A DNA stretch of 64,000 bases from an uncultured archaeon (GCA_938045545.1 CALIBN010000006.1:62246-126245); one strand, 5' to 3'; positions 17,720 through 33,773 are shown, counted from the stretch's first letter. Numbers and translations are program-made. Notes: generated by a model from the sequence alone, not told the origin.

Positions 17720-18864
17720 CCGTAGAGAAGAACCCTTCTGACCCTAGCTTTAAACCTTTTCTGCTCGTCTCTCAGTCTCAAAACAATCTCTTCGACGCTA
17801 ACGCCGTTTAAGATGTTTCTCCTGACCTTGCTGTCGCCGAGCAGCCTATCCATCTTCCCGTGTTCAACTTCTAACTCCCTCGGGTGAACCTCTAGCACAG
17901 TTTGAAGGATGTTGACCCCAACCTGGAAAGGCTTAATCTTCCTCTGGTCTTCCACCACAAGGTGGATCCCTCTGCAAACCTTTCCCTCGTGTTTGGAAGA
18001 GGAAGGGATGAACCTGGTCTCCATGAGGAGGCAATCTTTACCCAGCTTACGTCTCAACACGGGGGCGACCTCCGCTGATTTAAACCATGGAGCACCGAAG
18101 ACTTCAAAAGGCTTGTATGTTCCCCTGCCTTCAGAAAGGTTTGTAGCCTCCAGAAGAACCATCCCGGAATAGAGTAGCGCGGCAACCGGCGTCGGTATTG
18201 CGGGCGAAGGATAAACCCAGGGCAGGCCCGTGTCGCAGAAGTACATCATCCTGCTCCATCCTGAAAGCCTCACCACCAAGGGGGGTTTCAAGCCCTTTTC
18301 GAAAGCATAGAGGAGAGCCAGCTCGCCGGGAGTCATGCCGTATCTAAGGGGAACGTAATACGGTCCAACGAAGGATTCAAGCCCCTTTTTTAAAACAGGG
18401 CCCTCCACGGTGAGACCACCCAGTGGGTTAGGCCTGTCGAGAATCATGAAGCCGACGCTGTTCTTCGACGCCTCCTCTAAACAGTTTAGCATCGTGGATA
18501 TGTAAGTGTATGTTCTGCATCCAACGTCTTGAATATCGTAGATCAGCAGGTCTAGCTCCTTAAGCGTCTCGACACTGGGCTTTCTCCGCGTGCCGTATAG
18601 GCTTTGAACACTAACCCCGTTTAAAGAAAGTTTTTCAGACTCCACTGGCTCACCGGCACCGTAGGCTCCCCAAAGCCCGTGTTCAGGAGTAAAGATGGTT
18701 TTAACACGTATCCCTTTTTCTAAGAGCCGTATGTAAGACGGGTCTAATCTTCTCGTCACCGAAGTATGGTTTACGATAAGCCCTATGTTTAGACGGGAAA
18801 GCCTTTCAAGCAGTTTTCTCCTCTCGAGAAGGACGTCCAGCCCCGGCTTAACCCTGCTTGCCAA
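17716..18864 (-). CDS. namZ: Exo-beta-N-acetylmuramidase NamZ (DUF1343/GH171), no signal peptide
   Basis: NHTS, FTPEHG, SLYG, DIQDVGCRTYTY, LDRPNP, RYGMTPGELA, PSPAIP, NLSEGRGT. Confidence 0.92.
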   Translation of the reverse strand: MASRVKPGLDVLLERRKLLERLSRLNIGLIVNHTSVTRRLDPSYIRLLEKGIRVKTIFTPEHGLWGAYGAGEPVESEKLSLNGVSVQSLYGTRRKPSVETLKELDLLIYDIQDVGCRTYTYISTMLNCLEEASKNSVGFMILDRPNPLGGLTVEGPVLKKGLESFVGPYYVPLRYGMTPGELALLYAFEKGLKPPLVVRLSGWSRMMYFCDTGLPWVYPSPAIPTPVAALLYSGMVLLEATNLSEGRGTYKPFEVFGAPWFKSAEVAPVLRRKLGKDCLLMETRFIPSSSKHEGKVCRGIHLVVEDQRKIKPFQVGVNILQTVLEVHPRELEVEHGKMDRLLGDSKVRRNILNGVSVEEIVLRLRDEQKRFKARVRRVLLYG

Positions 18865-18865
18865 A

Positions 18866-19579
18866 CTACTCGCCCAGGAGGCTTTTCCTCCTTATCCTCT
18901 TAACACCCCAGTCTCCGAAGGTCATGAACGCTTCAGCGTATTGGAAACCGACTTCAAGCCCTCTGATCCTTTTTAAGCAGGAATAGTAATCAACGTAGTT
19001 GAACCCGCTGTACTTTCCAGATGTAAAATCGTAAGTCTTAATCACATCCAAATATTTTTCGAAAACACTGCCGACGTCAACGTACACCTCCGGCTGGAAG
19101 CCCTGCGGGTCCTCCCAGTTCTCAGGATAGTAAAGCTCAACCGACCTACTGTGCCTCCCCTCCGCCCTCTGCTCTCCCGTGAAGCTTTCGAAAGCCTGTA
19201 TGGCTAGAAGGTGGCACGCAAGATGATCAGGATGATAGCTTCCCTTCCAGTGAATCAGAACCGCGTCAGGCATGAACTCTGAAAGAGCCTTATACATTTT
19301 CTGCTTAACCTCCTCCGCATCGTAGGGAACGCCCTCCACGCAACCCAGGAAACCCACTTCAGCATCCAGCTTCCTAGACGCTTCTAAAGCCTGCTTAACC
19401 CTTGTTTCAGCATACTCCTCAGCAGATAACCCTGGCGGACGAGCCCATTTTCCAGAAGGCTTAAACATGTGGAGTATTAGACATCTTCCCCCCTCCTCAG
19501 CGTTTCTCAGAATCGACCCGCCCGCTGTGATTTCAACATCCCCAGTGTGGGCGCTAAACGCTAGTATTTTAATGCCCAA
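18866..19579 (-). CDS. PIG-L/LmbE family N-acetyl-sugar deacetylase
   Basis: SAHTGDVE (variant of HPDD), HPDH, VYVDV...RG...G..YAEAF. Confidence 0.85.
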   Translation of the reverse strand: MGIKILAFSAHTGDVEITAGGSILRNAEEGGRCLILHMFKPSGKWARPPGLSAEEYAETRVKQALEASRKLDAEVGFLGCVEGVPYDAEEVKQKMYKALSEFMPDAVLIHWKGSYHPDHLACHLLAIQAFESFTGEQRAEGRHSRSVELYYPENWEDPQGFQPEVYVDVGSVFEKYLDVIKTYDFTSGKYSGFNYVDYYSCLKRIRGLEVGFQYAEAFMTFGDWGVKRIRRKSLLGE

Positions 19580-19585
19580 CGTTGG

Positions 19586-20506
19586 TCACCCTCTTTCAAT
19601 ACTCTTGGTGAAAACCGCGAACCTACGGGCTTCAGACATGCCGTTCCTCACGTAGAAACTGTAGTTTCTACCCCCGCCCCAGGCCAACCAAGCATTCTTA
19701 CCGCCGAGAGACTGGATCAGCCTTAGACACCTGTGGAACAGGACCGTCCCAACCCCCTTGTTCCTATGCTCCTCAGCAACCCCGAAAGGGCCGAAATGCT
19801 CTATCAGCCCGTCGGTAGCTATTTGACAATAGCCAACTATCTCCCCGCCGTGGAAAGCAAGAGTAAACCAGTCGAGACACCTAGGATATTTCTCCATCGT
19901 CCTCCTAGCGTCCTCGTACCACCATGGGAACCTGGCTTTAAGGAAGAGAAGAAGCTCCAACACGTGTTCATCGTCAAGCTGCCGGAATAAGTAGCCTTCT
20001 CCAGAAAGCCTTCTCTCAAGTTCTAAAACCTCTCTTGGTGTCGCGTATCCCATAAGCGACATGCTCATTGAAACCGATTCCCTGCTTGACTCACTGTAGC
20101 CGTTCTTGGTGAAGAAGCCTATCGCCCCCGGGTAAGCCTTAACGTCAACCCCTGGAACAAGGTATCTCGGCCCGCCTGAGAAGACTACTCTCTTAACCCC
20201 TTTCCCTCTGAGTTTTTCCTCAACCGTTGCAAGCATTCTCGACCCGACGCCCATGCCTCTAAACCCGTTTTTCACAGCAAGTATGTTTATGTATCCTGTT
20301 TCACCCCTTGTTACGGAGTAGATGAAGCCGACCACCCTGCCCTCGGACTCTGACACGATGCAGAGATCAGGATCATAATTCTCCTGCAGGAGAACCCTGT
20401 ACCTGAAGGACTCCTCGTTAAGCCTGTCGAGAGGCATCGCGTCATTGATGATTTCTAGAACAGGCCTGAGATCCCGGCCTTTAAAACTTCTTTCCTCCAG
20501 GTTCAA
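19586..20506 (-). CDS. Tandem-GNAT acetyltransferase (GlmA-like amino-sugar N-acetyltransferase)
   Basis: Two acetyl-CoA binding motifs (FRGMGVG; HRNKGVG), YLVPGVD and FGPFGV; first gene of the namZ operon. Confidence 0.8.
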   Translation of the reverse strand: MNLEERSFKGRDLRPVLEIINDAMPLDRLNEESFRYRVLLQENYDPDLCIVSESEGRVVGFIYSVTRGETGYINILAVKNGFRGMGVGSRMLATVEEKLRGKGVKRVVFSGGPRYLVPGVDVKAYPGAIGFFTKNGYSESSRESVSMSMSLMGYATPREVLELERRLSGEGYLFRQLDDEHVLELLLFLKARFPWWYEDARRTMEKYPRCLDWFTLAFHGGEIVGYCQIATDGLIEHFGPFGVAEEHRNKGVGTVLFHRCLRLIQSLGGKNAWLAWGGGRNYSFYVRNGMSEARRFAVFTKSIERG

Positions 20507-20590
20507 CGAAAATCTGTTTGAACTGCTACATATAAGTGTTTTTCAAACCCAAGGTTTATCACCCACCGGGTTAACGTATAACGGCTTAAC

Positions 20591-21586
20591 ATGGTTTCAA
20601 GACTGGAGAGGATAGACGCGGAGTTTGAAAAACTGTTGACGGAGCATAGAAACCCTAGGACGGTTAGGATAGACAGGGTTGAGGTGGTTGAGGCCTTGAA
20701 GATGATAAACAGGGAGGACAAGAAGGTGGCTAGGGCTGTTGAACTAGAGATACCGAGGATCGCCAGGGCTGTTGAAAGCGTCGTCAAAGCCTTTAAGAAA
20801 GGCGGTAGGCTGATTTACGTTGGCGCCGGCACGAGCGGCAGGATAGGAGTCATAGACGCGGCCGAGTGTCCACCTACCTTCGGCACAAGCCCAAGCATGG
20901 TTCAGGCTCTGATAGCGGGTGGAAGAAGAGCCATGTTCAGGGCTGTTGAAGGGGCTGAGGACAACATGAAGGCCGGGGTTAACGATATCAAGCGTCTTAA
21001 GGTTTCCGAGAGGGATGTCGTCATAGGGCTGAGCGCCTCGGGCAGGGCACCCTACGTGGCAGGGGCTCTTAAGGAGGCTAGGCGAAGAGGTGCTGAAACC
21101 ATTGCCGTCGCAACAGTGCCTAACCCTAAGATCGGGGTCTACGCCAACATACTGATAACGCCAATAGTTGGTCCAGAAGCGATAGCGGGGTCTACTAGGA
21201 TGAAGGCGGGTACTGCTGAGAAGATGGTGCTAAACATGATTTCAACAGTCTCGATGGTCAGGATTGGAAAGGTGTATACGAACCTGATGATAGACATTAA
21301 GCCTTTAAGCGTGAAGCTTAGGTCACGGGCTAGGAGGCTGCTACGCTTTTTCGCAGGAGTCTCAAGCGAAGAGGCAGAGGAAATATACAGGGAGAGCAGG
21401 TATGATTTGAAGGTTGCTCTAGTCATGGCTTTAGCGAGGGTTGAGGCAGGCCAGGCAAGAAAAGCTTTGAGGAAAAGCCAGGGCCTAGTCTGGAGGGCTA
21501 TAAGGCTGATTCAGGAAGAAAGCACGAGACCCAGGTTTAAAACTCGAAAACAACAACGTCGTAAACCATCAGGCTGTCCAGAGTGA
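20591..21586 (+). CDS. murQ: N-acetylmuramic acid 6-phosphate etherase
   Basis: TEHRNP, GAGTSGRIGVIDAAECPPTFG, AVEGAED, GPEAIAGSTRMKAGTAEKMVLNMIST. Confidence 0.95.
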   Translation: MVSRLERIDAEFEKLLTEHRNPRTVRIDRVEVVEALKMINREDKKVARAVELEIPRIARAVESVVKAFKKGGRLIYVGAGTSGRIGVIDAAECPPTFGTSPSMVQALIAGGRRAMFRAVEGAEDNMKAGVNDIKRLKVSERDVVIGLSASGRAPYVAGALKEARRRGAETIAVATVPNPKIGVYANILITPIVGPEAIAGSTRMKAGTAEKMVLNMISTVSMVRIGKVYTNLMIDIKPLSVKLRSRARRLLRFFAGVSSEEAEEIYRESRYDLKVALVMALARVEAGQARKALRKSQGLVWRAIRLIQEESTRPRFKTRKQQRRKPSGCPE

Positions 21587-23723
21587 ATTCAAAACAGTCG
21601 GGGAGCTCCCGGACGGGGAGCATGCCTCTATCGCTAAGCTTAAACACCCTCCTGGGCCGGCTACCCCTGATTCTGACTTTAATATTGTGCACACTGGTTA
21701 TGCTTGAAATAGGCCTCTGCATGTCTCCAGTAGTATTAACAAGGTGGACAAGAATTCTGCCCGTGCTTCTCTGCTCCCTGACTTCGAACAGCACCGTCTC
21801 GGGAGCGTCAACCTCCACGACAGGAGGCTTACGCATCGCAAACCTAATGCAGCCGGCATAAACCTGCGAGATATCCGGCATCCTGTACCTGGAGTAGAAG
21901 TCTTCAATAAGCGAGGAGAAGTAGATCGTCCTGCTCTCGCCGTGGCTACTGCAGATGATTGCAGCATAGTTCGAAACCCCTCTGGGAGCCGCGTAGTAGG
22001 CGCCTATCGGATTCATGAAAAAGCATATCGCCTCAGCATCCCGCCTGCTGAAAGCCTTAAGGCTATACACTGGTCTAGGGATTAACGCGCCAACAGGCAT
22101 TGAGAAGATTTTCTTTTCAGGCTCTGCAAGCTTCATGTATTCCTCCCCGACCCTGGGAAGCATCATGCCGTCGCATCTTTCTACGCCTAGAATACTCCAG
22201 AGCGGGTTTTCAAGCCTATGGTCCCCATACTCGTCATAACAACCGGTTTCAAAGGAGCAGACCAAGCTTCCACCCTTTCCAATGAAGCTTCTAACGCTGC
22301 GGATCTGTTCATCGCTCAAGCAGGCAGAGTTTGGAAGAATAAGCAGAGAGTATTTTTCAAGCTCGCCTTTGGCAAGAGCGTCATCCAGAATCACGTCGTA
22401 CGGAATATGGCTTCGGCTTAAAATGGTTGCAGCGCCCAGTATAGAGTTAGTGTAGATCTCGTCGCATATTTCCTTTCTCGCCTTAAGGTCTGTTTTCCTC
22501 CTGCCAGTACTCCCCTCTATCCTAAGGTCCCTCTCAACACCAGTCCCCGGATCCAAGTATAGTTCCCTGAGCTCAGACAAGTAGAACGTGGATGTTTGCG
22601 TTGAGACCAGCAGGGCTACTTCAGCCTTCGAGACAGTGTCAGCATAGTATTCTTCGTTTCTCGACAGGAAGCCGAGAATGTTTCTCATAGGGGTTAAGGC
22701 ATCCTCCAGCCTAGTGTCTAAAGCGTAGTCGAATACTGCGAACCAAGGGTTTGCACCGCAGGAAACGGTTTGCGCAACCGAGACCTCAGCCTCGAAACGT
22801 GGCAGGGGAACGTAGTGCCAGCTGCCCAGCGCGTGATGGCTGAAGACAACCGCCGGCTTACCTTTGGCGGCGAGGTGCTTAGCCTCAAGCGTCCAGAAGA
22901 TTAGAGGCACGTTTTGAGAACCAGGATGGAAGAACGCCTCTGCGCCGTTAAAATCCTCGTATTCGCTTAGCTTTTCAATGTTGCGGGCAACCCTCCAGCT
23001 GCCGGGCCACCAGGCCCCACCGTTAAGAAATATTACACCCTCCTCGTTAACCCTCTTAACAGCTTGACGAGCATCCCTGAGAAACTCAACCATAGACTCT
23101 TCTCTGAACTCTATGAATCTCTTCCAGAGAGGGTTCGACCAGTCTTCCCAGCTGGGAGGCTCGCTGCCATGCTTTTCCGAAAACTTTTCCCGGCATGACT
23201 TGCAGTAGCAGCACCCTGGGAAAACAACCGGCCCATCCAGGAAAACACCGTCAATCCCTGTTTTCATAGCCTCCTCTATGAGTTCGAAAGCCCAGTTTCT
23301 CCACCCTGTGTTCACGCAGAAAGTCGTCCCGGATCCATATAGGGGATGCACGCTACCATAGCTTCTACCGTCTTCTATGCGTTGCTCCCAATCAGCATGC
23401 CTACGTCCAAACTCATACGAATACCAGTGCATGTTCAAGTATGCTAAGACCCTGATCCCATGCTTCCTGGCATGAGGCAAGTATTCCCTCACCAGGTCGA
23501 AATCACCCAGCCCAGGATACTTTTCGAACTTCGGCGTGTTGAAAGTGGTTAAGTAGCCCAGCCCCGGGGCTGTCCCCGGCGTACCTATCACCCATTCGCA
23601 GTTAATATTCCACTCCTCCTTCTTCCACCCGGCCAGCTTATCCATGTCTGATTCAGCCATCCTGCCCAGAGCATCCAAGTAGTCGAGCCTCATCATCCTA
23701 ACGGGTTTCCGCCACCACTCCAA
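21537..23723 (-). CDS. Uncharacterised glycoside hydrolase (GHL6/GH42-like TIM barrel plus beta-galactosidase trimerisation domain)
   Basis: GIRVLAYL, CVNTGW, DGVFLDG, CCYCKSC, LILPNSACLSD..GGSLV, VHLVN. Confidence 0.75.
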   Translation of the reverse strand: MEWWRKPVRMMRLDYLDALGRMAESDMDKLAGWKKEEWNINCEWVIGTPGTAPGLGYLTTFNTPKFEKYPGLGDFDLVREYLPHARKHGIRVLAYLNMHWYSYEFGRRHADWEQRIEDGRSYGSVHPLYGSGTTFCVNTGWRNWAFELIEEAMKTGIDGVFLDGPVVFPGCCYCKSCREKFSEKHGSEPPSWEDWSNPLWKRFIEFREESMVEFLRDARQAVKRVNEEGVIFLNGGAWWPGSWRVARNIEKLSEYEDFNGAEAFFHPGSQNVPLIFWTLEAKHLAAKGKPAVVFSHHALGSWHYVPLPRFEAEVSVAQTVSCGANPWFAVFDYALDTRLEDALTPMRNILGFLSRNEEYYADTVSKAEVALLVSTQTSTFYLSELRELYLDPGTGVERDLRIEGSTGRRKTDLKARKEICDEIYTNSILGAATILSRSHIPYDVILDDALAKGELEKYSLLILPNSACLSDEQIRSVRSFIGKGGSLVCSFETGCYDEYGDHRLENPLWSILGVERCDGMMLPRVGEEYMKLAEPEKKIFSMPVGALIPRPVYSLKAFSRRDAEAICFFMNPIGAYYAAPRGVSNYAAIICSSHGESRTIYFSSLIEDFYSRYRMPDISQVYAGCIRFAMRKPPVVEVDAPETVLFEVREQRSTGRILVHLVNTTGDMQRPISSITSVHNIKVRIRGSRPRRVFKLSDRGMLPVRELPDCFEFTLDSLMVYDVVVFEF

Positions 23724-24035: not shown

Positions 24036-25154
24036 TTGGTCGAAGATGCAACGAGGGAACAGAAGGTACACGGTGTACAAATGTCGATTATAATCCCCAC
24101 TTACATGGAAGCAGAAACCCTTTCTAAGCTTGTAGAAAGAGTAGAGAAGACTTTGGTGGAAACAGATTTCGAGATCATCATTGTCGACGATAATAGTCCC
24201 GATGGGACAGCTGACATCGCTGAGGGGCTTGGCATGAAGTTTGGAAATATCAGGGTGATAAGAAGGCCTGGAAAGCTGGGGTTGGGCTCTGCAGTGATGG
24301 ATGGACTAAAGTTGGCGAGATCACAGCTGATCGCTGTTATGGACGCCGATTTGCAGCATCCTCCGGAAGTCCTAAAACATATGTTGGAGGAGTTAGGAAA
24401 AGGTTGTGATGTTGTCATCGCCTCAAGGTATGTTAAGGGTGGTGGAGCCCAGGGCCTCAGCGTGTGGAGGCGATTTATATCTAAAGGAGCCACCGTCCTT
24501 GCGCACGTTTCCCTGCCGAAGACGAGCCGCGTTTCAGACCCGCTATCTGGATATTTCGCGCTCAACAAGAAAGTGATTCATGGAATTAAGCTGAACCCGA
24601 TCGGTTACAAGATCCTGCTCGAAATCCTTGTGAAAGGAAAATACGGAAGGGTCTGCGAAATACCTTACAACCTTCAGCATAGGGCTGGGGGTAGAAGTAA
24701 ACTCGGTTTACGCGAGATTTTGCTTTATTTGAAACACTTATACTCATTGACAAAGGAGGCAAGCGAACATAGGAGGCTTATAAACTTCGTGCTGGTTGGG
24801 TTGGCGGGAATCCTAGTTAATGAGACCATCTTATGGTTTTTGACTGAACACTTATATCTGCATTATGTGTTTTCCGCTTCGATCAGCGCAGAAGTATCTG
24901 TTTTATCAAACTTCGCTCTGAACGAGGTTTTCACGTTCAGGGACCTGGTAGCAGATTCCTCTTTAAGATCGGTGTTTAGAAGAGTCTTTGAATACAACTG
25001 GACAAGAATAGTGGGGATATGCATAGAGCTGTTCACATTGCATGTTTTAACCATTTTCGCGGGACTACACTATCTTCTTGCAAACCTTGTGGGTATTGCT
25101 TTAAGCTTGGCTTGGGGTTATTCAACCAGCATCTCAATTGTATGGAAGAGTTAG
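24036..25154 (+). CDS. Dolichol-phosphate mannosyltransferase (GT2) with C-terminal GtrA domain
   Basis: IIIPTY, VDDNSPDGT, MDADLQHPP, SDPLSG, IGYKILLE; GtrA-like tail FVLVG..GILVN...SNFALNEVFTF. Confidence 0.9.
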   Translation: MVEDATREQKVHGVQMSIIIPTYMEAETLSKLVERVEKTLVETDFEIIIVDDNSPDGTADIAEGLGMKFGNIRVIRRPGKLGLGSAVMDGLKLARSQLIAVMDADLQHPPEVLKHMLEELGKGCDVVIASRYVKGGGAQGLSVWRRFISKGATVLAHVSLPKTSRVSDPLSGYFALNKKVIHGIKLNPIGYKILLEILVKGKYGRVCEIPYNLQHRAGGRSKLGLREILLYLKHLYSLTKEASEHRRLINFVLVGLAGILVNETILWFLTEHLYLHYVFSASISAEVSVLSNFALNEVFTFRDLVADSSLRSVFRRVFEYNWTRIVGICIELFTLHVLTIFAGLHYLLANLVGIALSLAWGYSTSISIVWKS

Positions 25155-25347
25155 GCCATGCCAGTTATTCTTTGAGTAAGCTAGGGTGTTTTTTGAAGAT
25201 GTTGAACACGAGTCTCATATTCCGAGATACTGGGTTGAGAGCAGTATTGAGCGTTAATCCAGTTCGATTAATTCCGAGCTGGTAGCGTTGCCGTAATGCT
25301 TTTAAACTTTGGCTTCTTATCAATAATTTGCCTGATAATAAGCTAAG

Positions 25348-27642
25348 ATGAGCATGCCTTTGAAAGCCGCACATTCGTGTTTGAAAACATTTACACTCAT
25401 CCTTATTGTCGTCTTGCTTGCACTCAGCCTTCTCTCGATTCCTCTAGGCATTAGCATAATCTTAGTTGAAGGCCTCTCGAATGCAGCCTCGAAAATCCAA
25501 ACATCGTGGTACTTTTACTTCGCATTAGCTGAGATTATTTATTCTTTATGCTTCGTTTTTGCTTTCAGGTCGAGAGAAAGCCTCAGAAAATCTATACGTA
25601 AATTTCTTAACGAGCCCATTGCATTTCCAAGCGATAATTTCTTGCTACTTATGCCTGTTATCACGTGCTTAACCCATATGGCCCTGAGCCTTATCGAATC
25701 GATCCAAAAACATCTACAGATATCAACAGGCCTCCCACCCCTAAGCTCGGACCCGATATCGGCCTACTTTGAATCAGCCTGGTCCCCCATACTTGAAGAG
25801 ATTGTGTTTAGAATGCTCTTGCTGGGTTTTTTCTACTCTTTCTACCTGAACAGAGGCATCGGCACCCTTTCAGTTCGCAAAAAGCTCAATGTTTCTCTGC
25901 TTTCATTCTTAAGCCCGGAAAGCGCGAAGAGGCTTTTAAGATCATGGGGCTCATCCATATCTTTTAAAATCGAAAATGACGAATGGATGATCATCATTTT
26001 CTCCTCTGCCCTCTTTGCTTTTTCCCACTACGCGGTGCCAAACGCTTGGGGTATTGGAAAACTTACCTTAGCGTTCATACAAGGATTTACTATGGCGCTG
26101 TCATACGTCTTTTATGGTATCTATGCTTCCCTACTAATTCACTGGTACTTCAATTACTATCTGTACACCAATAGACTAATTGCAGTTTTACTTCCAAACC
26201 TGTCATTTCTAAGCGTGTTCAGCGAAGTAGTATCCATGGTCTTGACAGTACTAACCTTAACCCTGTTGGTGCTTTTGAACATTAGAAGCATGATCAAGAC
26301 AGTTTCGTCTACCTGCAAGAAATATCGGCCGAGCCTCATAATGCTAGTCCCTAGAGCCTGCGTGACAATAAAGAAAAGAATGCTGGCTTTAAATGTTGTT
26401 AAAAAAGCAATCCCTGAGCTGGCTTTGCTAGCTGTAGTTGTCCTCACGTTAATCTTAAGGCTGTCCATTCTCGAATATCCGAAGCGTGAAACCTACGGAG
26501 GGATAGTAAGCTGGGACTTTATATTTGATGAGAAGTATTACGTTAGTGCAGCTAGAGACATGTTGGCAGACAAGGCAACGAACAATGAACATCCACCTCT
26601 AGTGAAGGTTTTCATTGCTTTGGGCATAATGTTCTTGGGAGATAACCCGGCAGGTTGGCGTGTCTTCACAATCTCAGCTGCAACGGCTTCAGTATTATTG
26701 GTGTACGCACTTTCTTTGCTTCTCAATGGTAGTAGAGAGGTTTCTCTTTGCTCAGCGATACTCTTTGCCTTAGACATAATGGTGTTCAACATAGGACAGA
26801 TCGCCATTCTAGATGCTCCAGCAATAACGTTTATGCTTGCTGCAAGCGTATTATTTTTGAAGAAGAGGCATGATCTTGGCGGGTTTTTTCTAGGCTTAGC
26901 CTCATTGTGTAAGCTTACTTCCGTGTTTTTATATTTAGGCATCACAGCCTTTCTAGTTCTATCTGAGGTAAAGTCGTTCCGAAAGACTATAGAATCCTGT
27001 TTAAGGATTGGCGTCACAGCCCTTGTTGTCTTCTTAGCCGGATTATGGGTCTACGACTCATTATATTCCGCCTTCGCTAAAAACCCTCTAAGTCACATTA
27101 GCTACATGCTAACATACCACAGCAGCCTGAAATATCAGGATTCGAAAGAAGTAATTCTTCCATTACAATGGATAAATCCACTCGACCCGTTCACCCCCAT
27201 GCCGTTCTACGTTATAACGACTATGGAAACAGTGGGAGGAACCCTTAAAGTATACCATCCTGTTGCCTATTACGGTATCTACAGCCCTCTATGGTGGAGC
27301 ATATGGATAGTCATGTCTCTAAGCCTATTCTACATCTTAAGAGAAGCAAGAAATAGAAGTTTTGAGAGAACCCGGCTTTTCATCCTTACTTGGATCCTTG
27401 CGAACTTCTTGCCTTATGTTTTTCTAGCATACCTAATGTCTAGATGGGTTTACCCATTTTACTTCTACTTGACATTGCCGGCGCTATATATCGGTCTATC
27501 CAGCTACTTGAATAGATGCAAGTATTCAAAACTAGTTATGGCTTCCACTGTAATTTTGCAAGCTTTTTGGTTCGTCTTATGGTTTCCGGTTAAACCAAAG
27601 CTTCTTATTGATATCTTAGCATCTTTGGGATTGCCAGTTTAA
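25348..27642 (+). CDS. Fusion of a CPBP (Abi/Rce1-like) intramembrane protease and a Pmt/GT39 protein O-mannosyltransferase
   Basis: N-terminal half: PILEEIVFR, FAFSH, IHWYFN. C-terminal half: FDEKYY, NEHPPLVK, GDNPAGWR, ILD, CK, YH...W, YPFYF. Confidence 0.85.
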   Translation: MSMPLKAAHSCLKTFTLILIVVLLALSLLSIPLGISIILVEGLSNAASKIQTSWYFYFALAEIIYSLCFVFAFRSRESLRKSIRKFLNEPIAFPSDNFLLLMPVITCLTHMALSLIESIQKHLQISTGLPPLSSDPISAYFESAWSPILEEIVFRMLLLGFFYSFYLNRGIGTLSVRKKLNVSLLSFLSPESAKRLLRSWGSSISFKIENDEWMIIIFSSALFAFSHYAVPNAWGIGKLTLAFIQGFTMALSYVFYGIYASLLIHWYFNYYLYTNRLIAVLLPNLSFLSVFSEVVSMVLTVLTLTLLVLLNIRSMIKTVSSTCKKYRPSLIMLVPRACVTIKKRMLALNVVKKAIPELALLAVVVLTLILRLSILEYPKRETYGGIVSWDFIFDEKYYVSAARDMLADKATNNEHPPLVKVFIALGIMFLGDNPAGWRVFTISAATASVLLVYALSLLLNGSREVSLCSAILFALDIMVFNIGQIAILDAPAITFMLAASVLFLKKRHDLGGFFLGLASLCKLTSVFLYLGITAFLVLSEVKSFRKTIESCLRIGVTALVVFLAGLWVYDSLYSAFAKNPLSHISYMLTYHSSLKYQDSKEVILPLQWINPLDPFTPMPFYVITTMETVGGTLKVYHPVAYYGIYSPLWWSIWIVMSLSLFYILREARNRSFERTRLFILTWILANFLPYVFLAYLMSRWVYPFYFYLTLPALYIGLSSYLNRCKYSKLVMASTVILQAFWFVLWFPVKPKLLIDILASLGLPV

Positions 27643-27845
27643 AGAAACCGATCTCGACTCGACTCCCACTCGTATTGAAAGAAGACGGTGCAAAATATGA
27701 CGAGGCAGATGAGAATTTTAAAAATCATGGTGTCTGTTTAGACATATTATGGTCAAGATTAATAACAAAACTTTTTTGCATCACCTAGCAATCTCATATA
27801 AGGTGGTACTTAATTTTTATTGAAAAAGATAACAGGGTATTATAG

Positions 27846-29771
27846 TTACTTCTTTCTGGATGCCACGAGCCAGCCGATTGCAACGCCTATTATAAGCGCT
27901 ACTATGCCAATGCCCCCGGCACTAACCACATCGAAACCTGGTGCTCCGGCAACTGTAGTAGTAACAGTGATTGTTACAGTTACAGCAGTAGGCGGCGACT
28001 TCGGCTGTATCCTAGCTAGTACGAAGAAGAACGTAGGCCACCAGTTGTAAGGCACTATGTACATATTGTCTTGAGAAGGCCAGCCAACCCAGTATTTGGT
28101 TGAGAAAGTCTGTACGAACGTCTTCTCAACCGCGGGAACAGTTATGCAGTCCCTCTGCACTATGTAAAAGGCTTCTTCCAGTAACGAGGCGGTACGCGGA
28201 TGGTCTAATGGTATTGTCCAAAGCTCATCTATTATGGCATCTAGCTCCGGGTTTCTGTACCTTGGATTAGCACCCTGGATACCGGGAGAGTTGGAAGTAC
28301 TACCGATAGGAGCGTACCATTTGCTGTGAAATACGTCTAGGGTTGACACAGGGTCACCCATGATCCATCCCGGGGTGCAGTGAGTACATATCCTTATGTC
28401 GTATTGGCCAAGCGCTGAGAGATCACCCAGCAGCGCACCTCCTATTTTAGTAGTGGCGTCTATTCCGACTGCCTTTAGTTCCTCCACTAGGTCATAACCT
28501 ATGTAGTGGGCAGCGTCTTCACCCAGCAGAAGCTCTACAGTGAACTTTGTCCCGTTAGGCAGCTCTCTAAACCCGTCTTTATCTATGTCCCGGAACCCTA
28601 GGGAGTCCAATATTTGTTTCGCCTTTTCAGGGTCGTATTTCAATTCGAAACCAAGTTCATTCTTGATTCTTTCTAGCCCCCTGTTAATCATGGGTTTATA
28701 CGGATCGAAAACAGCCCAAGAGTATGGCATCGGAAGAAGCCAATCTGTCGTCGGAGTGCCATTCGATAACGCATAAGCCCTAGCTAAGGCAGGACGGTTC
28801 ACTAAATAAGCTATGGCCCATCTGAACTCCCTTATGCTAAACGGATACTTGGCCACGTTAAACGAGTTAATCCCATAGGGACATGGGTCGGTATATGGAG
28901 CTATAACAATATCAATTGTCCTCCTCATAGCAGTACTGATCATCTCCCAAGTAAATATGTGGGGAAGCACGACATCGACATCACCCCTAACGAAGTCCTC
29001 AAGATCCACGTCGGCTGCAGGAATGCCACGCCATATCACGTATTTGGGAGTTGGGAAAACCCCCATATTTTTACCCCAGTAATCATCTCTCCTCTCCCAT
29101 ATGAACATCGGTATTTCTGGATAAACTGCATAAAGCTTGTAGGGGCCCGTGTCTACGGGTGGCCAATTCGCAAAGGTTTTCGGATCAACATTCTTCCATA
29201 TGTGCTCCGGGACTATGGGGAAATAGCTCCACATCCTGAATGTATGATGGAACCTTGGGTTAGGCTTCTTCAAGTGTACAACCAGTGTATAGTCGTCAGG
29301 CATTTCAACCGATTCAACCCATTCGTTAACATAACTTGAACCTCCAAAGTCAGGATTCTGTTTCAGCATGTTCATAGTGAATGCAATATCTCTTGCAGTA
29401 TATGGATGGCCGTCATTCCAAGTAACACCCCTCCTGATGTACAGGGTAAAGGTTCTGTAATCATCGCTATATTTCCACCCAGTTACTCTCCAGTATATGA
29501 TTTCGCCAGTAGCATAGTTAATGTACCAGTCCCATTCTTGTGCTATTTGGTGCCATCCAGAACCCCACTGCGAACCTTGAGGTATGAAGGGATTCGCTTT
29601 GTCAAATACCGTGAAGTAAGGTGAAAGCATTATCTCGGTAATTACTGTTTGATCCCGGGGGACAGGCAGAGCCGGTTGAGCCTTAACTGGCATTGCTAAG
29701 GGCATCAAGAAGGCAAATACAATTATTGATATGAAAATCGATTTAGCCATCCTTTTTAACAACATTTTCAC
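27846..29771 (-). CDS. Family 5 ABC substrate-binding protein (oligopeptide/oligosaccharide) with Thr-rich linker and C-terminal TM anchor
   Basis: Signal peptide; RRGVTWNDGHPYTARDIAFT, GPYKL, FRWAIAYLVNR; tail PTAVTVTITVTTTVAGAPGF-TM-SRKK. Confidence 0.92.
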   Translation of the reverse strand: MKMLLKRMAKSIFISIIVFAFLMPLAMPVKAQPALPVPRDQTVITEIMLSPYFTVFDKANPFIPQGSQWGSGWHQIAQEWDWYINYATGEIIYWRVTGWKYSDDYRTFTLYIRRGVTWNDGHPYTARDIAFTMNMLKQNPDFGGSSYVNEWVESVEMPDDYTLVVHLKKPNPRFHHTFRMWSYFPIVPEHIWKNVDPKTFANWPPVDTGPYKLYAVYPEIPMFIWERRDDYWGKNMGVFPTPKYVIWRGIPAADVDLEDFVRGDVDVVLPHIFTWEMISTAMRRTIDIVIAPYTDPCPYGINSFNVAKYPFSIREFRWAIAYLVNRPALARAYALSNGTPTTDWLLPMPYSWAVFDPYKPMINRGLERIKNELGFELKYDPEKAKQILDSLGFRDIDKDGFRELPNGTKFTVELLLGEDAAHYIGYDLVEELKAVGIDATTKIGGALLGDLSALGQYDIRICTHCTPGWIMGDPVSTLDVFHSKWYAPIGSTSNSPGIQGANPRYRNPELDAIIDELWTIPLDHPRTASLLEEAFYIVQRDCITVPAVEKTFVQTFSTKYWVGWPSQDNMYIVPYNWWPTFFFVLARIQPKSPPTAVTVTITVTTTVAGAPGFDVVSAGGIGIVALIIGVAIGWLVASRKK

Positions 29772-29887
29772 TCAAAGCATTATTAATTCAGGTACATATA
29801 AATCTTATGGTTAAAAAAGTAAACTCGACGGCCGGCGACAGAAAGCTTTTTATTTTAGATCTTTATCTTTCAAAGAAGGTAGAGTGA

Positions 29888-30907
29888 ATGACTAGTAAAA
29901 AACGCATTCTGCGCTATATGACGAAGCGTGTAATCGTCTACGTGATCACGTTATTCATATCATTCTCAATCGTGTTCTTATTCCTACGTTTGATACCGGG
30001 AGACCCTATAACACGATACTTGAGAATGCTTGAGCAGAGATACTCTTATTCAATGGAAATGCTGGATATTGTGGTAAAATGGAAGGCTGAGCTTGGTCTA
30101 GAAGGAGATCTATTTACACAATACTCGCGTTATATACAAAATTTATTCTTACGTTTAGATTTGGGCCCATCATTCGTGGCTTTCCCAACTCCGGTTCAGG
30201 ATCTCATACTGACGAGGCTGCCGTGGACGATAGCACTCCTAGGAGTGGCAACTTTAATTTCTTGGAGTATCGGTACTTTAGCAGGGGTAATATTAGGTTG
30301 GAAGAGAGGCACTAAATTTGACTCCACGCTTTTTACAATAGCTCTCTGTATGTCTCAAGTACCATATTATATCGCCGCAATTTTTTTAGTTCTACTTTTA
30401 GCCTATGTTTTCCCTGTTTTTCCATCCAGATATGCTTTTTCACCTGGAGTTCAAATAAAGCTCAGTCTCGACTTTATATCAAGTGTTTTATACCATTCTT
30501 TTCTTCCCGCATTATCCATAGTACTAACTTCTGCTTTTGGTTGGCTAATTTCCGCAAGGTTCCTTACCATTAGTATAATAGGTGAGGATTATCTTCTCTT
30601 TGCCCAAGCCAAAGGTCTAAAGGCAAACAGAGTCTTAAATAGGTACATTCTAAGAAATGCCTTATTACCGCAAGCCACAGGACTCGCCATGTCACTGGGC
30701 TTCATAGTAAATGGTGCTTACTTAGTGGAGTGGGTGTTTTCTTACCCAGGCATAGGAGGACTATTACAGTATGCTATAAATCTTGTTGACTATAATACTA
30801 TCCAAGGAATCATATTGATGTCAATCTTTACTGTTCTCACAGCCAACCTTATAATGGATCTGATTTACCCGTTGATAGACCCAAGAATAAGGTCTGGTGA
30901 GAGATGA
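29888..30907 (+). CDS. ABC permease DppB/OppB-like
   Basis: RLIPGDP, RLPWT, EDYLLFAQAKGL, EWVFSYPGIG, IDPRIR. Confidence 0.93.
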   Translation: MTSKKRILRYMTKRVIVYVITLFISFSIVFLFLRLIPGDPITRYLRMLEQRYSYSMEMLDIVVKWKAELGLEGDLFTQYSRYIQNLFLRLDLGPSFVAFPTPVQDLILTRLPWTIALLGVATLISWSIGTLAGVILGWKRGTKFDSTLFTIALCMSQVPYYIAAIFLVLLLAYVFPVFPSRYAFSPGVQIKLSLDFISSVLYHSFLPALSIVLTSAFGWLISARFLTISIIGEDYLLFAQAKGLKANRVLNRYILRNALLPQATGLAMSLGFIVNGAYLVEWVFSYPGIGGLLQYAINLVDYNTIQGIILMSIFTVLTANLIMDLIYPLIDPRIRSGER

Positions 30908-31797
30908 TGAATACTCTTAAGTTAAAAAAAGGATTAAAAAGCGCAGCATCATTTTTTGCGAGATCGACTGCCTTTAGAGTGGGAATTATCATGCTTAGTC
31001 TGATCCTGCTTCTAGCTTTATTAGAACCAGTCATAAACGGATACATTCTTAAAGGAAAAGGTCCTCTCAAGACCGGGGTTTTTGACAAATATTTACCTCC
31101 TTCTTTAGAGCATCCGTTAGGAACAGACCACTATGGAAGGGATGTGCTTGCTCTCTTACTAGCTAGCCTTAAGTATTCTTTGCTAATAGGAGCCTTCGCA
31201 GGATTGATCGCCACTTTGATCGGAACCACGATAGCTAGTTTATCCGGCTATTTTGGTGGCAAGGTTGACCTTATATTAAACAGTGTCACAAACGGGATGC
31301 TGGTTATTCCAAGTTTTCCGATTCTGATAGCTATTGCTGCGTATATACGACTCGATCTTATTACAATGTGCTTGGTCCTAGCGATATTCAGCTGGGCTTG
31401 GTCTGCACGCTTGGTAAGAGCCCAGATTTTAAGCATGAAGGAAAGACCCTATATAGAACTAGCTAAAGTCTCTGGCTTCCACAGTTTCGAAATAATGTTT
31501 CTAGAAATACTGCCGAACATGGCTCCCTTTATAATTATGGGTTTAATAAATAGCATAATGGGTGCGATGTTTGCTGAAACCGGATTAAGGGTTCTGGGTT
31601 TAGGGCCTGGTGAAATACCGTCTCTCGGCCTTATGATAAGCTGGGCACTTACTTTCGGAGCTATCTCCATAGGGCGTTATAACTTATTAGTAGCTCCGGC
31701 AGGGGCTCTCGTCCTGGTTTTCATATCGTTAAACTTAATTAACATAGGTCTGGAGGAAATATTTAATCCAAGGCTTAAAAAAATTACAGGGCTTTAG
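30904..31797 (+). CDS. ABC permease DppC/OppC-like
   Basis: HPLGTDHYGRD, ARLVRAQILSMKERPYIELAK, NPRL. Confidence 0.93.
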   Translation: MMNTLKLKKGLKSAASFFARSTAFRVGIIMLSLILLLALLEPVINGYILKGKGPLKTGVFDKYLPPSLEHPLGTDHYGRDVLALLLASLKYSLLIGAFAGLIATLIGTTIASLSGYFGGKVDLILNSVTNGMLVIPSFPILIAIAAYIRLDLITMCLVLAIFSWAWSARLVRAQILSMKERPYIELAKVSGFHSFEIMFLEILPNMAPFIIMGLINSIMGAMFAETGLRVLGLGPGEIPSLGLMISWALTFGAISIGRYNLLVAPAGALVLVFISLNLINIGLEEIFNPRLKKITGL

Positions 31798-31804
31798 AAA
31801 ATGG

Positions 31805-32809
31805 TTATTTAACATAGAGAAAGCACAGGACCCTTCTACCTGGCTCCACCTCTATCATAGGGGGCCTTTCTTTTTTACACACGTCCATAGCGTAGGGACA
31901 TCTTGGCCAGAATATGCAGCCCTTCTCTACCCTAGCCTGCTCCGAGAGGGAAGTCGCTTCTGCCAACTGCATCCGATCTTTCCATCTAGCCTTCGGGCTG
32001 GGAGCAGGTATTGAGGATAGTAAGAGCTTTGTATATGGATGCAATGGTTCATTTATAATTTCGTTGGTACTACCCTCCTCAACAACATTGCCTTGACACA
32101 ATACGATTAAACTATCTGCCACGCAGTTAGCTATATCCAGGTCATGAGTTATGTATAAGCATGAGGCCCCTATCTTATCTTTTAATACGCGTAACTGATC
32201 TAGGAATATCGCTCTTAAAGAAGCATCTATCATGGAGACAGGTTCATCCGCCACTATGAGTCTAGGTTTTATTAGAAGTATCCTGGCTAGCATTAGCCTT
32301 TGTCTTTCTCCTCCACTCAGTTGATGAGGATATCTTCCTAATATATCTTCAGGCCTGAGCCCCATGTCTTTCATAGCAGAAATAATCATATCTTCGATAG
32401 CTTTACCGTCGTTAACTATTTTCAACTTTTTTAAGGGCGCTTTGAGTATTCGCTCGACTCTATAGAAAGGATTATAGATGCTGTAAGGGTCTTGAAAAAT
32501 GGGTTGAACCTCTTTTAAATAAGCTAACTTATTTTTTCTGAGCCACTCCGATACAGACTTTCCTTTATATAATACCTTTCCATAAGTAGGCTCTAGCAAC
32601 CCCAAGATCAGTCTGGCTATTGTAGTTTTTCCACTGCCACTTTCACCTATAAGACCTATAGATACAGGCTTCTCAGAAGGCACTGAAAATGAAACGGAAA
32701 CTAATGCTTTAATAGTCGATCTACCTACTATTCCTAAACCACCGCCTACCCTATATTCATGCGTGACATCCTTCAATTCAAGAAGCGGTTCACTCTTCAT
32801 TTTAATCAC
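31805..32809 (-). CDS. ABC ATPase DppF/OppF-like
   Basis: GESGSGKTT, YPHQLSGGERQR, ADEP, HPYT, C-terminal Cys motif. Confidence 0.93.
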   Translation of the reverse strand: MIKMKSEPLLELKDVTHEYRVGGGLGIVGRSTIKALVSVSFSVPSEKPVSIGLIGESGSGKTTIARLILGLLEPTYGKVLYKGKSVSEWLRKNKLAYLKEVQPIFQDPYSIYNPFYRVERILKAPLKKLKIVNDGKAIEDMIISAMKDMGLRPEDILGRYPHQLSGGERQRLMLARILLIKPRLIVADEPVSMIDASLRAIFLDQLRVLKDKIGASCLYITHDLDIANCVADSLIVLCQGNVVEEGSTNEIINEPLHPYTKLLLSSIPAPSPKARWKDRMQLAEATSLSEQARVEKGCIFWPRCPYAMDVCKKERPPMIEVEPGRRVLCFLYVK

Positions 32810-33773
32810 CGTAAAGATGACATGCTACAAATCTACCTTGTTGAATTGATTTAACAGGAGGTTCGATTTCCCTACAGATATTCATGACAAAGGGGCATCT
32901 CGGATGGAACCGACAGCCTTTAGGCCAATCCAAGGGGCTTGGTGCCAACCCAGGTATACCCTTGATTATTTTCTTTTCAAGTGACGGCACGGCCGCTATC
33001 AGTCCTTTACTGTAGGGATGTAAAGGGTCCTCAAATAGTTCGTAGACAGGACTGACTTCTACAACTTTCCCCGCATACATTACGGCCACCCTATCACCAA
33101 CCTGCGCGTGAGCAGCCATGCTGTGAGATACTAAAACGATAGACATGCCGTACTTATCCTTGAGGGTCCTTAAAAGCTGCAGGATTCCCTTCTGAACAAC
33201 TACATCCAAAGCAGTGGTTGGTTCATCGGCTATAATTAGAGTAGGCTTCAAAGCTATGGCCATCGCTATTATGACTCTCTGTTTCATACCACCACTAAGC
33301 TCGTGAGGATACATTTCAGCCACCTTGGTAGATAGGCCCACTTCCTGAAGCAACTGCATTATAAGTTGCATAGCCTCTTTCTTTTTCATATCAGAATGAT
33401 CTAGTATAGCATCCATCATCTGTTCTTTGACTTTTAAGAAGGGGTTCAAAGAATTCATAGCACCTTGCGGAACGTAAGCTAACTTAGTCCACCTAATTCT
33501 GTTTAATTCTTTCTCAGGAAGTTTCAATAAATCTACTCCTTCAAATATGACTTTACCGCTGGGAATGTAGCCCGGAGTTTTAACTAGTCTAAGCATTCCA
33601 TCTACGAGGGTTGATTTACCACATCCCGATTCTCCAGCTATGCTGAAAACTTCATCGCGAACCACTTCTAAAGACACCCCGTCAACAGATTTATAGTCGC
33701 CATATATGCTTCTATAATATATTTTTAAATCCTTGACTTCCAGTATTTTATCCAAGACTTGCTCTGGTTCCAT
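32802..33773 (-). CDS. ABC ATPase DppD/OppD-like
   Basis: GESGCGKST, YPHELSGGMKQR, ADEPTTALDV, GCRFHPRCP. Confidence 0.93.
   Translation of the reverse strand: MEPEQVLDKILEVKDLKIYYRSIYGDYKSVDGVSLEVVRDEVFSIAGESGCGKSTLVDGMLRLVKTPGYIPSGKVIFEGVDLLKLPEKELNRIRWTKLAYVPQGAMNSLNPFLKVKEQMMDAILDHSDMKKKEAMQLIMQLLQEVGLSTKVAEMYPHELSGGMKQRVIIAMAIALKPTLIIADEPTTALDVVVQKGILQLLRTLKDKYGMSIVLVSHSMAAHAQVGDRVAVMYAGKVVEVSPVYELFEDPLHPYSKGLIAAVPSLEKKIIKGIPGLAPSPLDWPKGCRFHPRCPFVMNICREIEPPVKSIQQGRFVACHLYGD

Follow-up and report, generated by a model that had tools for sequence, protein, structure and literature searches.

Protein O-mannosyltransferases (PMTs) of glycosyltransferase family 39 (GT39), among them the fungal enzymes Pmt1/Pmt2 and Pmt4 and actinobacterial Pmt proteins such as Cg_1014 of Corynebacterium glutamicum, have a membrane domain of the GT-C fold and use dolichyl-phosphate mannose (Dol-P-Man) as donor. 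No characterised member carries a domain of the CPBP family of intramembrane proteases at its N-terminus. To our knowledge, no archaeal enzyme of protein O-glycosylation has been identified, most prokaryotic CPBP proteins are without a known substrate, and no CAAX-type substrate is known in archaea. In the present work, we analyse a gene in which the two kinds of domain are joined. It lies in a stretch of 64,000 nucleotides (GCA_938045545.1 CALIBN010000006.1:62246-126245, called the window below) from an uncultured Thermoproteota (Bathyarchaeia-like) archaeon, and it encodes a single protein with an N-terminal CPBP/Rce1-like half and a C-terminal Pmt-type GT-C half. Both domains are of known kinds, and their combination is the new element.

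On the CPBP side, MmRce1 (PDB 4CAD) bears the motifs EExxxR, FxxxH and HxxxN on the fourth, fifth and seventh of its eight transmembrane (TM) helices, as the model of the fusion does, and section 7 of a review on Rce1 places its termini on the side opposite the opening of its cavity (PMC5874806). The fusion differs from MmRce1 in being a weak structural match to it, in an insert of 40 residues between motifs 1 and 2 that is predicted to be cytoplasmic and has invariant residues of its own, and in a cavity that is predicted to face outward. Two pairs of proteins from Staphylococcus aureus, SagB-SpdC (10.1101/2020.05.21.109470) and LnsA-LnsB (PMC13559823), resemble the fusion in another respect. 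According to these reports, an enzyme that modifies the envelope at the outer face has an eight-TM protein of CPBP fold as its partner, for which the protease motifs are not needed. These are, however, separate bacterial polypeptides, the enzymes being a glucosaminidase and an NlpC/P60 acyltransferase and not a GT-C protein, and the catalytic motifs, all of which the window protein keeps, are absent or dispensable in SpdC and LnsB.

In the systems of myxosortase (MrtX) and related CPBP sorting proteases, among them the archaeal CGP-CTERM system of Thermococcales, a CPBP protease acts on exported proteins that have a Thr/Ser-rich stretch in front of the signal. A preprint links CPBP proteases to C-terminal sorting, also in archaea (10.1101/2023.06.07.544157), and the 30 residues before CGP-CTERM, which are rich in Thr and Ser, are suggested to be O-glycosylated (10.1101/2023.06.07.544157; PMC11980579). 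Myxosortases are not fused to a glycosyltransferase, unlike the present protein, and the text of that preprint does not once use 'fusion', 'fused' or 'glycosyltransferase' (10.1101/2023.06.07.544157). In Haloferax volcanii, finally, AglD makes Dol-P-Man, AglR helps in its flipping and AglS transfers the mannose (PMC3871713). This pathway has a GT2 synthase inside and a membrane transferase outside, like the synthase and fusion discussed below, but AglS finishes an N-glycan, and the Agl system as described there has no CPBP component.

The fused gene and its family

The gene is one uninterrupted open reading frame (ORF), and the reverse strand across it is closed by many stops. An earlier note, made from the sequence alone, had pointed out this frame together with three CPBP motifs, a basic linker and the DE, NEHPPL and GWR stretches of the second half, and all of these are confirmed, each of the six motifs occurring exactly once in the protein (Table 1). 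The same note raised the question of read support across the linker (about 26280-26420). Here, a Logan contig of run X1 (16,642 nt) shows 0 differences over 24036-27900 at a word depth of 20.9; X1 is possibly the source sample, which makes the contig the product of a different assembler working possibly on the same reads. A stronger argument is the conservation of the fusion in relatives from many independent assemblies. No stop separates the halves at the locus or in any aligned relative, which rules out an assembly or read-through artefact, and the architecture is almost certainly genuine.

A word-index search with the 764-residue protein listed 54 proteins, of which 36 (P0002-P0037) cover at least 85% of it at 40-100% identity, and these come from Thermoproteota/Bathyarchaeia metagenome bins. 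An alignment of 32 rows was made from the query and 31 relatives of 41-75% identity, leaving aside the window's own protein (P0002) and the shorter P0004, P0009, P0026 and P0037. The linker varies in both length and sequence among the 32 rows, and the frame is open in all of them. A HMMER search over 1.84 billion cluster representatives gave 2089 proteins at E <= 0.001. Among the 150 matches listed, only P0010 and P0020 span both halves, 44 correspond to the N-half alone (~260-400 aa) and the rest to the C-half alone. The earlier note had asked whether relatives are fused or are split into adjacent genes: fused relatives are conserved, whereas split halves are never seen side by side.

In FastTree trees, which are quick, unrooted and without bootstrap, the 32 fused C-domains group together in a single clade (support 100), and the 32 fused N-domains lie on one side of a branch that also has support 100. 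Two short proteins without the N-half, P0039 and P0040, nest within the fused C-clade; their contigs are of 7.6 and 2.7 kb, and they may be fragments. The trees point to a single, ancient origin of the fusion, which has been kept down to 41% identity. Its distribution is patchy: within the genus it occurs in 3 of the 16 other genomes, and in the phylum sample 6 of 301 have it, counting the window's genome (G000).

In the databases, the fused relatives are named 'glycosyltransferase family 39 protein', 'phospholipid carrier-dependent glycosyltransferase' or 'ArnT-like', and a precomputed match to PF02517 is present for just one of the 54 listed proteins (P0023). A Pfam scan of the whole protein gives only PMT_2 (42.1 bits, cut-off 26.1) and PMT. 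When residues 1-350 are scanned alone, PF02517 is found at 26.2 bits (cut-off 22.4) over residues 144-270. The public annotation misses the CPBP half probably because this family passes its cut-off only when the N-half is scanned by itself. Our literature search found no paper on a CPBP-glycosyltransferase fusion, and the titles and abstract openings of the literature on GT39 and archaeal O-mannosylation contained nothing on archaeal enzymes. The architecture, which the earlier note did not recognise, is thus apparently undescribed in print and under-annotated in the databases.

Two observations on single members of the family can be added. The N-domain of the window protein is nearest to that of P0003, with which it shares 83% identity and pairs with support in the N tree, and its C-domain to P0005 (84%), with which it groups together with P0006 in the C tree; this mosaic suggests recombination near the linker among close lineages. 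In the Bathyarchaeota bin345 chromosome (CP070749.1; L020:5905-7635), the fused ORF ends at 576 aa inside PMT_2 and may be a truncated or frameshifted copy.

Table 1. Coordinates in the window of the fused gene, its parts and its neighbours (K/R and D/E, basic and acidic residues).
Feature	Position	Strand	Remarks
Fused gene, 764 aa + stop	25348..27642	+	Single ORF, ATG 25348, stop 27640-27642
CPBP/Rce1-like domain, residues 1-325, 8 long TM helices	25348..26322	+	PF02517, AlphaFold2 model
CPBP motif 1 EEIVFR, residues 150-155 (E150, E151, R155), 4th TM helix	25795..25812	+	
Subfamily-specific insert between motifs 1 and 2, SPESAK 189-194 and DEW 211-213, predicted cytoplasmic	25912..25986	+	
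CPBP motif 2 FAFSH, residues 223-227 (H227), end of 5th TM helix	26014..26028	+	
CPBP motif 3 HWYFN, residues 265-269 (H265, N269), 7th TM helix	26140..26154	+	
Basic linker, residues 317-353, predicted cytoplasmic	26296..26406	+	10 K/R, 0 D/E
Pmt-type (GT39-like) GT-C domain, residues 348-764	26389..27639	+	PMT_2 and PMT Pfam matches
FDEKYY, residues 393-398, catalytic or metal-binding DE (D394, E395), first extracytoplasmic loop of GT-C	26524..26541	+	
NEHPPL, residues 413-418	26584..26601	+	Conserved GT-C stretch
GWR, residues 436-438	26653..26661	+	Conserved GT-C stretch
Type-III dolichyl-phosphate mannose synthase homologue, 372 aa, GT2 and GtrA/DPMS TM domain	24036..25154	+	
P0205, SBP_bac_5 solute-binding protein, 641 aa, convergent, signal peptide	27846..29771	-	Pfam 179.4 bits
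BadF/BcrA-type ATPase	16757-17719	-	
NamZ exo-beta-N-acetylmuramidase	17716-18864	-	
PIG-L-type deacetylase	18866-19579	-	
Double GNAT	19586-20506	-	
GKRP/MurQ-type SIS protein	20591-21586	+	
GHL6/GH42M protein	21537-23723	-	

Fold, catalytic residues and membrane orientation

We consider the C-terminal half first. The full-length AlphaFold2 model has a mean pLDDT of 77.8 and a pTM of 0.66, with the linker (317-353) below 50. Its best match in Foldseek is Chaetomium Pmt4 (E 5.6e-7), and the five best structural matches in VIA are all PMTs, namely 9i5l_A (Z 31.6), 9i5k_A (31.1), 6p25_B (30.3), 9e61_A (29.4) and 9e6i_B (29.2). The alignments to Pmt4, Pmt2 and the others run over the membrane domain, from model residue 349/351 to 759/764, and bring 375-379 residues to an rmsd of 3.1-3.3 Å at 15-17% identity. 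Below the PMTs follow ArnT (Z 25.3), AglB (25.0), oligosaccharyltransferase (OST) subunits (~24) and then the ALG enzymes. A search of PDB sequences with the family profile gives yeast Pmt1 (6P25, E 0.0029), with the DE of its VFDE stretch and the HPPL stretch aligned, and no other GT-C protein; the one further row of that search matches the N-half at chance level (E 0.95).

The domain begins with TM helix 348-373, and the DE motif follows in the outer loop that comes next, as in the GT39 enzymes. D394, E395, H415 and R438 are present in all 32 fused proteins, and E414, H415, P416, P417, L418, G436, W437 and R438 are invariant there; the DE motif is invariant also in 21/21 rows of the C-domain alignment. 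The Pmt of C. glutamicum requires its DE motif, D65/E66, for activity (PMC11727336).

The GT-C domain has ~417 residues, and the protein gives no Pfam match to the MIR domain, which eukaryotic PMTs have in their large luminal loop. Bacterial PMTs are not known to have a MIR domain either, and its absence does thus not exclude the prokaryotic PMT branch. In the window's genome, the fused gene is the only PMT_2 gene, and a single AglB is encoded elsewhere. By modelled fold and by motifs, the C-half appears to be Pmt-type, although not a demonstrated member of a characterised enzyme group. The earlier note had called the enzyme 'Pmt-type', and this label, more specific than a generic GT-C, is upheld by the five best structural matches and by the Dol-P-Man synthase homologue directly upstream.

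Other proteins of these families show further arrangements. P0147, P0164 and P0173 (753-840 aa) have the same GT-C family fused to a GT87-like GT-C partner at the N-terminus, and are thus double GT-C proteins. Three loci from the same genus without the fusion, L014 (463-2853, minus strand), L015 and L016, encode a different PMT_2 protein of 734-799 aa. The one in L014 has one N-terminal TM helix, and its first ~340 residues look soluble and are probably extracellular; in L015 and L016, a weakly similar GT2 adjoins the gene.

We now turn to the N-terminal half, for which a model of residues 1-350 reaches a pLDDT of 88.7 and a pTM of 0.86. It has eight TM helices (3-45, 49-74, 98-122, 136-169, 210-229, 237-256, 258-281 and 283-325), and the three motifs are located on the fourth, fifth and seventh of them. 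The insert of ~40 residues lies at 170-209, is predicted to be cytoplasmic and contains two helices (176-188 and 190-199).

The nearest Atlas clusters of the domain are archaeal CPBP proteins (scores 0.94-0.95), and its stand-alone relatives, aligned in 39 rows, form a distinct archaeal CPBP subfamily. A word-index search with the N-half alone returned 0 among 8000 candidates (192-613 aa), which was a failure of sensitivity, as HMMER found dozens of stand-alone relatives. Invariant in the 39 rows are E150, R155, H227 and H265, and also P103, P190, F223, W234, G237, K238, G257, W266 and Y271, while E212 is at least 90% conserved; PF02517 is matched at E <= 0.01 by 22 of the rows. Three of them end in a zinc ribbon, in keeping with a cytoplasmic location of the C-terminus. 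The subfamily is present in 93 of the 301 genomes of the phylum sample, and in all 43 genomes of one family (f5). In our reading, the N-half was derived from a stand-alone archaeal CPBP family.

All six CPBP catalytic positions are intact in 25 of the 32 fused proteins, including the window protein, whose CPBP domain is probably still catalytic. Taken singly, E150 is kept in 31/32, E151 in 29/32, R155 in 29/32 and H227 in 31/32. H265 is replaced by R or S in 7/32, all belonging to one clade, some members of which have also changed E150, E151, R155 or H227. In the insert, P190, K194, E212 and W213 are invariant in all 32.

The orientation of the two active sites can be estimated from topology. 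Basic segments of the cytoplasmic type occur at the N-terminus, in the loop 74-97 (6 K/R) and in the linker, and the eight helices together with these segments place both ends of the CPBP domain in the cytoplasm. The alignment of the GT-C half to the Pmt structures starts at its first helix (model residue 349), in agreement with a cytoplasmic C-terminus of the CPBP domain. In the established Pmt topology, the DE loop is extracytoplasmic. The CPBP cavity would open outward, on the same face as this loop, because the termini of MmRce1 are opposite to its cavity opening. Going by topology rules and not by measured geometry, both active sites would hence be at the outer face. A complex prediction between the N-half (1-328) and the C-half (346-764), run on the 32-row alignment, scored 0.00 and bears neither way on the packing of the domains.

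Some side observations concern CPBP proteins elsewhere. In family f11 (L018, L122-L125, L127), the stand-alone CPBP gene lies between those of a protein with four CBS domains and a polyprenyl synthetase, all on one strand. The arrangement is confirmed by Pfam in L018 and L122 and partly in L123 and L124, and is deduced from ORF sizes in the others; a link to isoprenoid metabolism is conceivable. One stand-alone homologue (G032:C1:327787-328716, minus strand) is in a frame of 683 aa, ~2x the usual length, and may be another fusion or merely a long frame. The window's genome has a second CPBP fusion, an ORF of 595 aa (G000:C6:60971-62758, minus strand, equal to L001:1465-3252) whose 5' end falls within window positions 1-513. 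It contains an Rce1-like domain (83.6 bits, residues 497-584), preceded by ~490 N-terminal residues without a Pfam match.

Probable donor and acceptor, and a possible link between the halves

Directly upstream of the fused gene is a homologue of the type-III dolichyl-phosphate mannose synthases. It matches Glycos_transf_2 (121.6 bits) and GtrA_DPMS_TM (66.5 bits), and its alignment to the Pyrococcus furiosus enzyme 5MLZ covers the full length (residues 12-370 against 21-372 of the chain), with 313.6 bits and E 1.8e-92. It is the sole full-length copy in the genome, and it precedes the fusion directly in 5 of the 7 fused loci with examined flanks (G000, G002, G009, G010 and G024). A synthase of 47% identity adjoins a stand-alone GT-C gene in a Dehalococcoidia contig, and none was found beside the sister stand-alone archaeal GT-C genes of L021-L026 and L030, within flanks of <=6 kb (one side being shorter in L023, L025 and L030). 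The gap of 193 bp between synthase and fusion contains TTTTAAA ~45 nt before the ATG, and the fusion may have its own promoter. Judged by its homology, the synthase is the probable maker of the lipid-linked sugar donor, and we consider it likely that the GT-C half uses the Dol-P-hexose made by this neighbour.

On this basis, the following mechanism can be proposed. The synthase would charge dolichyl phosphate with mannose on the cytoplasmic face, and once the lipid is flipped, the GT-C half would pass the mannose on at the outer face, its most likely acceptors being Ser/Thr residues of proteins that are exported or anchored in the membrane; synthase and fusion would make up a two-gene module. 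The CPBP half would act as a built-in partner that engages a membrane-embedded or juxtamembrane segment of the same substrates, and in the window protein, with its intact catalytic residues, it would probably also cleave them. The precedents of SpdC and LnsB make such a partner role plausible. The analysis shows the architecture of the protein, how well it is conserved and that it arose once, as well as the synthase next to it; which donor and acceptor are used, how the CPBP cavity is oriented and any coupling of the halves are what we infer. For a Dol-P-Man-dependent Pmt-type mannosyltransferase with a CPBP partner, both at the outer face and functionally linked, the proposal taken as a whole is tentative, its chances being a little below even.

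The clade of seven fused proteins without H265 bears directly on the link. Its N-domains still have a mean identity of 79%, compared to 83% for the C-domains, and the N/C distance ratio of 1.28 is not above the value of 1.41 for other pairs. Since the catalytically altered clade keeps its N-domain conserved, the domain seems to be kept for something besides catalysis, and its conserved role across the family would be at least partly non-proteolytic. In the window's genome, the fused copy is the sole member of the CPBP subfamily (1 match). On balance, we lean slightly towards the halves being functionally linked at all.

It is necessary to set against the proposed mechanism a number of results that weigh against it. 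The structure search with the N-domain model is one of them. In a wide VIA search of 48,161 chains, SpdC ranks first (Z 6.2) and MmRce1 (4cad_C) third (displayed Z 5.1; rmsd 3.8 Å, 126 residues, 15% identity), both aligning over the motif-bearing core, and APH-1B ranks 48th; only 2 chains reach Z 5, and the values for SpdC and MmRce1 are within the noise level of VIA for helical proteins. Foldseek gives no match at E <= 0.001 with the same model. The search is consistent with the CPBP family and is no proof of it. A profile of the N-family run against the PDB sequences was also tried and gave only a chance match to a designed protein and none to 4CAD.

As to the GT-C half, the NCBIfam Pmt equivalog NF058602 is not reached (38.7 bits against a cut-off of 800, and only over residues 391-505), and the Pfam PMT score of 24.1 is marginal with respect to its cut-off of 22.7. 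In G197 and the bin345 chromosome, the two fused loci that are most distant, the synthase does not adjoin the fusion. Ser/Thr-rich linkers were found in just 10 of 1638 ORFs of the genome, mostly short and doubtful ones. For 24036-27642, no RNA run is listed, only one DNA run that is possibly the source.

The separate families, furthermore, scarcely occur together. In the 301 genomes, the CPBP subfamily is present in 93 and GT-C orthologues in 54, and both are found in 11, 6 of which have the fusion, while ~17 would be expected if they were independent; in the five non-fusion genomes with both, the genes are on different contigs. Family f5, where every genome has the CPBP protein, has GT-C in 0/43, and families f13 and f18 have GT-C in 11/11 and 18/18 of their genomes and CPBP in 0/11 and 1/18. 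Neither a GT-C gene nor a synthase lies within 1.5 kb of any of 28 stand-alone CPBP loci. With distributions that almost complement each other, the separate families show that outside the fusion each half can do without the other.

A first alternative differs in the acceptor alone and can be combined with any view of the CPBP half: the GT-C domain might add a Dol-P-linked hexose to an N-glycan, a lipid or a surface polysaccharide. AglS of Haloferax volcanii, which transfers mannose to an Asn-linked tetrasaccharide (PMC3871713), offers an example from archaea. PMT_2 is a broad family that takes in ArnT-like enzymes, the very name given to some relatives, and the low equivalog score, the presence of AglB in the genome and the scarcity of Ser/Thr-rich linkers agree with this possibility. 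The structural comparison speaks against it, however, as ArnT, AglB, OST and the ALG enzymes score 4-6 Z units lower than the five PMT entries, on which ~378 of 417 residues superimpose at ~3.2 Å, and so does the sequence profile, which retrieves yeast Pmt1 and no other GT-C. We find a non-protein acceptor or an N-glycan doubtful, whereas Ser/Thr of proteins as acceptor has about an even chance.

Another explanation is that two topologically compatible (both N-in) genes were joined by chance and act on unrelated substrates, the fusion ensuring nothing other than co-expression. That the families do not co-occur beyond the fusions and are never adjacent would be expected in this case. The stand-alone CPBP genes lie among housekeeping genes (histidyl-tRNA synthetase and AdoMet synthetase, and in family f11 the CBS protein and polyprenyl synthetase), the linker is long, variable and modelled with low confidence, and the patchiness of the fusion in the genus and the phylum sample also fits. 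What this explanation fails to account for is that an ancient fusion has been kept in all sampled descendants, the nested short P0039 and P0040 being the only ones without the N-half, and that the N-domain has not decayed in the proteins that lost its catalytic residues, an observation that makes little sense unless the domain has some role in connection with the GT-C half. Independent functions are therefore rather unlikely.

The clade without H265, which keeps its CPBP domain about as well conserved as its GT-C half, could also be taken to mean that the domain is only a scaffold, that is, a non-protease platform which orients, stabilises or gates the GT-C half or the lipid-linked donor, in the way that SpdC serves SagB and LnsB serves LnsA, but made permanent by the fusion. 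The best structural match of the N-domain is SpdC, known from the SagB-SpdC complex; no CPBP motif residue is essential in LnsAB (PMC13559823), and APH-1 and SpdC are discussed elsewhere as non-catalytic CPBP folds (PMC7387801). For a pure scaffold, on the other hand, one would not expect all six catalytic positions to be kept in 25 of 32 proteins down to 41% identity. The stand-alone ancestors have invariant catalytic residues, and whole families have stand-alone GT-C orthologues without such a partner. We consider a role as scaffold alone unlikely.

The last alternative is a coupling of the sortase type, close to what the earlier note had in mind, in which the CPBP half, as a sorting protease, removes C-terminal anchors or signals and the GT-C half O-mannosylates a Thr/Ser-rich linker upstream of the cut. 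The preprint on CGP-CTERM proteins has such a stretch in front of the signal, the predicted topology puts the two active sites on the outer side, and the catalytic residues of the window protein are intact. The convergent neighbour P0205 has a fitting tail, consisting of the Thr-rich stretch TAVTVTITVTTTV followed by AGAPGF, a hydrophobic TM helix and SRKK. No archaeosortase is apparent in the 92%-complete genome: PF09721, TIGR04178 and TIGR04125 give no match there at E <= 1, the control genomes being positive for both TIGR models.

Sorting systems are defined, however, by a family of proteins that share the signal, which for the myxosortases is C-terminal and tripartite with an invariant Cys, and our scans of the genome show none. 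These scans, like the one for Ser/Thr-rich linkers, applied home-made, crude hydropathy and composition rules to raw ORFs. A filter for a C-terminal TM helix with a basic tail is passed by 68 of 2115 ORFs, with the Thr-rich/PGF form only in P0205, and the plausibly secreted, C-anchored proteins among 20 examined rows share no motif before the helix and no conserved Cys, in which the fusion is unlike the myxosortases. The models for these enzymes stay far below their cut-offs: MrtJ (NF033192) gives 16.3-18.1 bits for the window protein and at most 21.5 for the stand-alone relatives (cut-off 75), and Mrt_core (NF040914) at most 17.2 for the latter (cut-off 100).

P0205 itself adjoins the fusion only at the window locus and in the closest relative, and an orthologue is present in 1 of the 16 other genomes of the genus, compared to 3 with the fusion; in G010:C31:5628-7570, the orthologue is split into two frames. 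It is a candidate substrate only. The universal presence of the stand-alone CPBP protein in a family that lacks GT-C, the loss of catalytic residues in 7 of 32 fused proteins, and the separate halves, which scarcely co-occur and are never adjacent, also speak against this coupling, which we judge improbable. Of the interpretation in the earlier note, the CPBP domain, the Pmt-like GT-C domain with intact DE and the reality of the gene have held up, while the coupling of C-terminal processing to O-glycosylation is a hypothesis. A self-contained machine for the maturation of surface proteins, in which the CPBP domain captures, and in most lineages clips, a C-terminal or juxtamembrane anchor (e.g. 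that of P0205) and the Pmt domain mannosylates the adjoining Thr-rich linker with Dol-P-Man from the upstream synthase, has the same poor prospects.

Surrounding DNA and meaning of the fusion

The composition and content of the flanking DNA provide some further observations. The G+C content is 0.39-0.46 per 500-nt bin over 24500-33000, except for 0.49 at 28000-28499, and 0.47-0.54 in the 4.5 kb upstream. With the low G+C and the patchy distribution in the genus, the block of synthase, fusion and transporter could have been acquired. Further upstream, the cluster at 16757-23723 looks like archaeal scavenging of peptidoglycan amino sugars. At 54483-55991, the minus strand encodes a radical SAM protein whose radical SAM domain is preceded by an inserted intein-splicing domain.

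We finally consider what the fusion would mean. Our analysis delimits a distinct CPBP subfamily of archaea, whose catalytic residues are invariant, whose insert is specific to it and predicted to be cytoplasmic, and which is present in 93 of the 301 sampled genomes of the phylum. If the two halves were independent, the result would be a correction of annotation only, namely that proteins of the 'GT39 family' carry an unannotated protease-like domain. If, against our expectation, the maturation machine were true, the fusion would be the first protein O-mannosyltransferase to be identified in archaea, and intramembrane proteolysis would for the first time be seen physically coupled to the glycosylation of proteins. 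By the Rosetta-stone argument, a role in envelope-protein maturation would then follow for the widespread stand-alone CPBP family of Nitrososphaeria and relatives. The conserved fusion provides a concrete hypothesis, according to which exported proteins would be substrates, at the outer face, of both a Pmt-type transferase and a CPBP domain, and it does so in a small system made up of a synthase, the fusion and a neighbouring candidate substrate.

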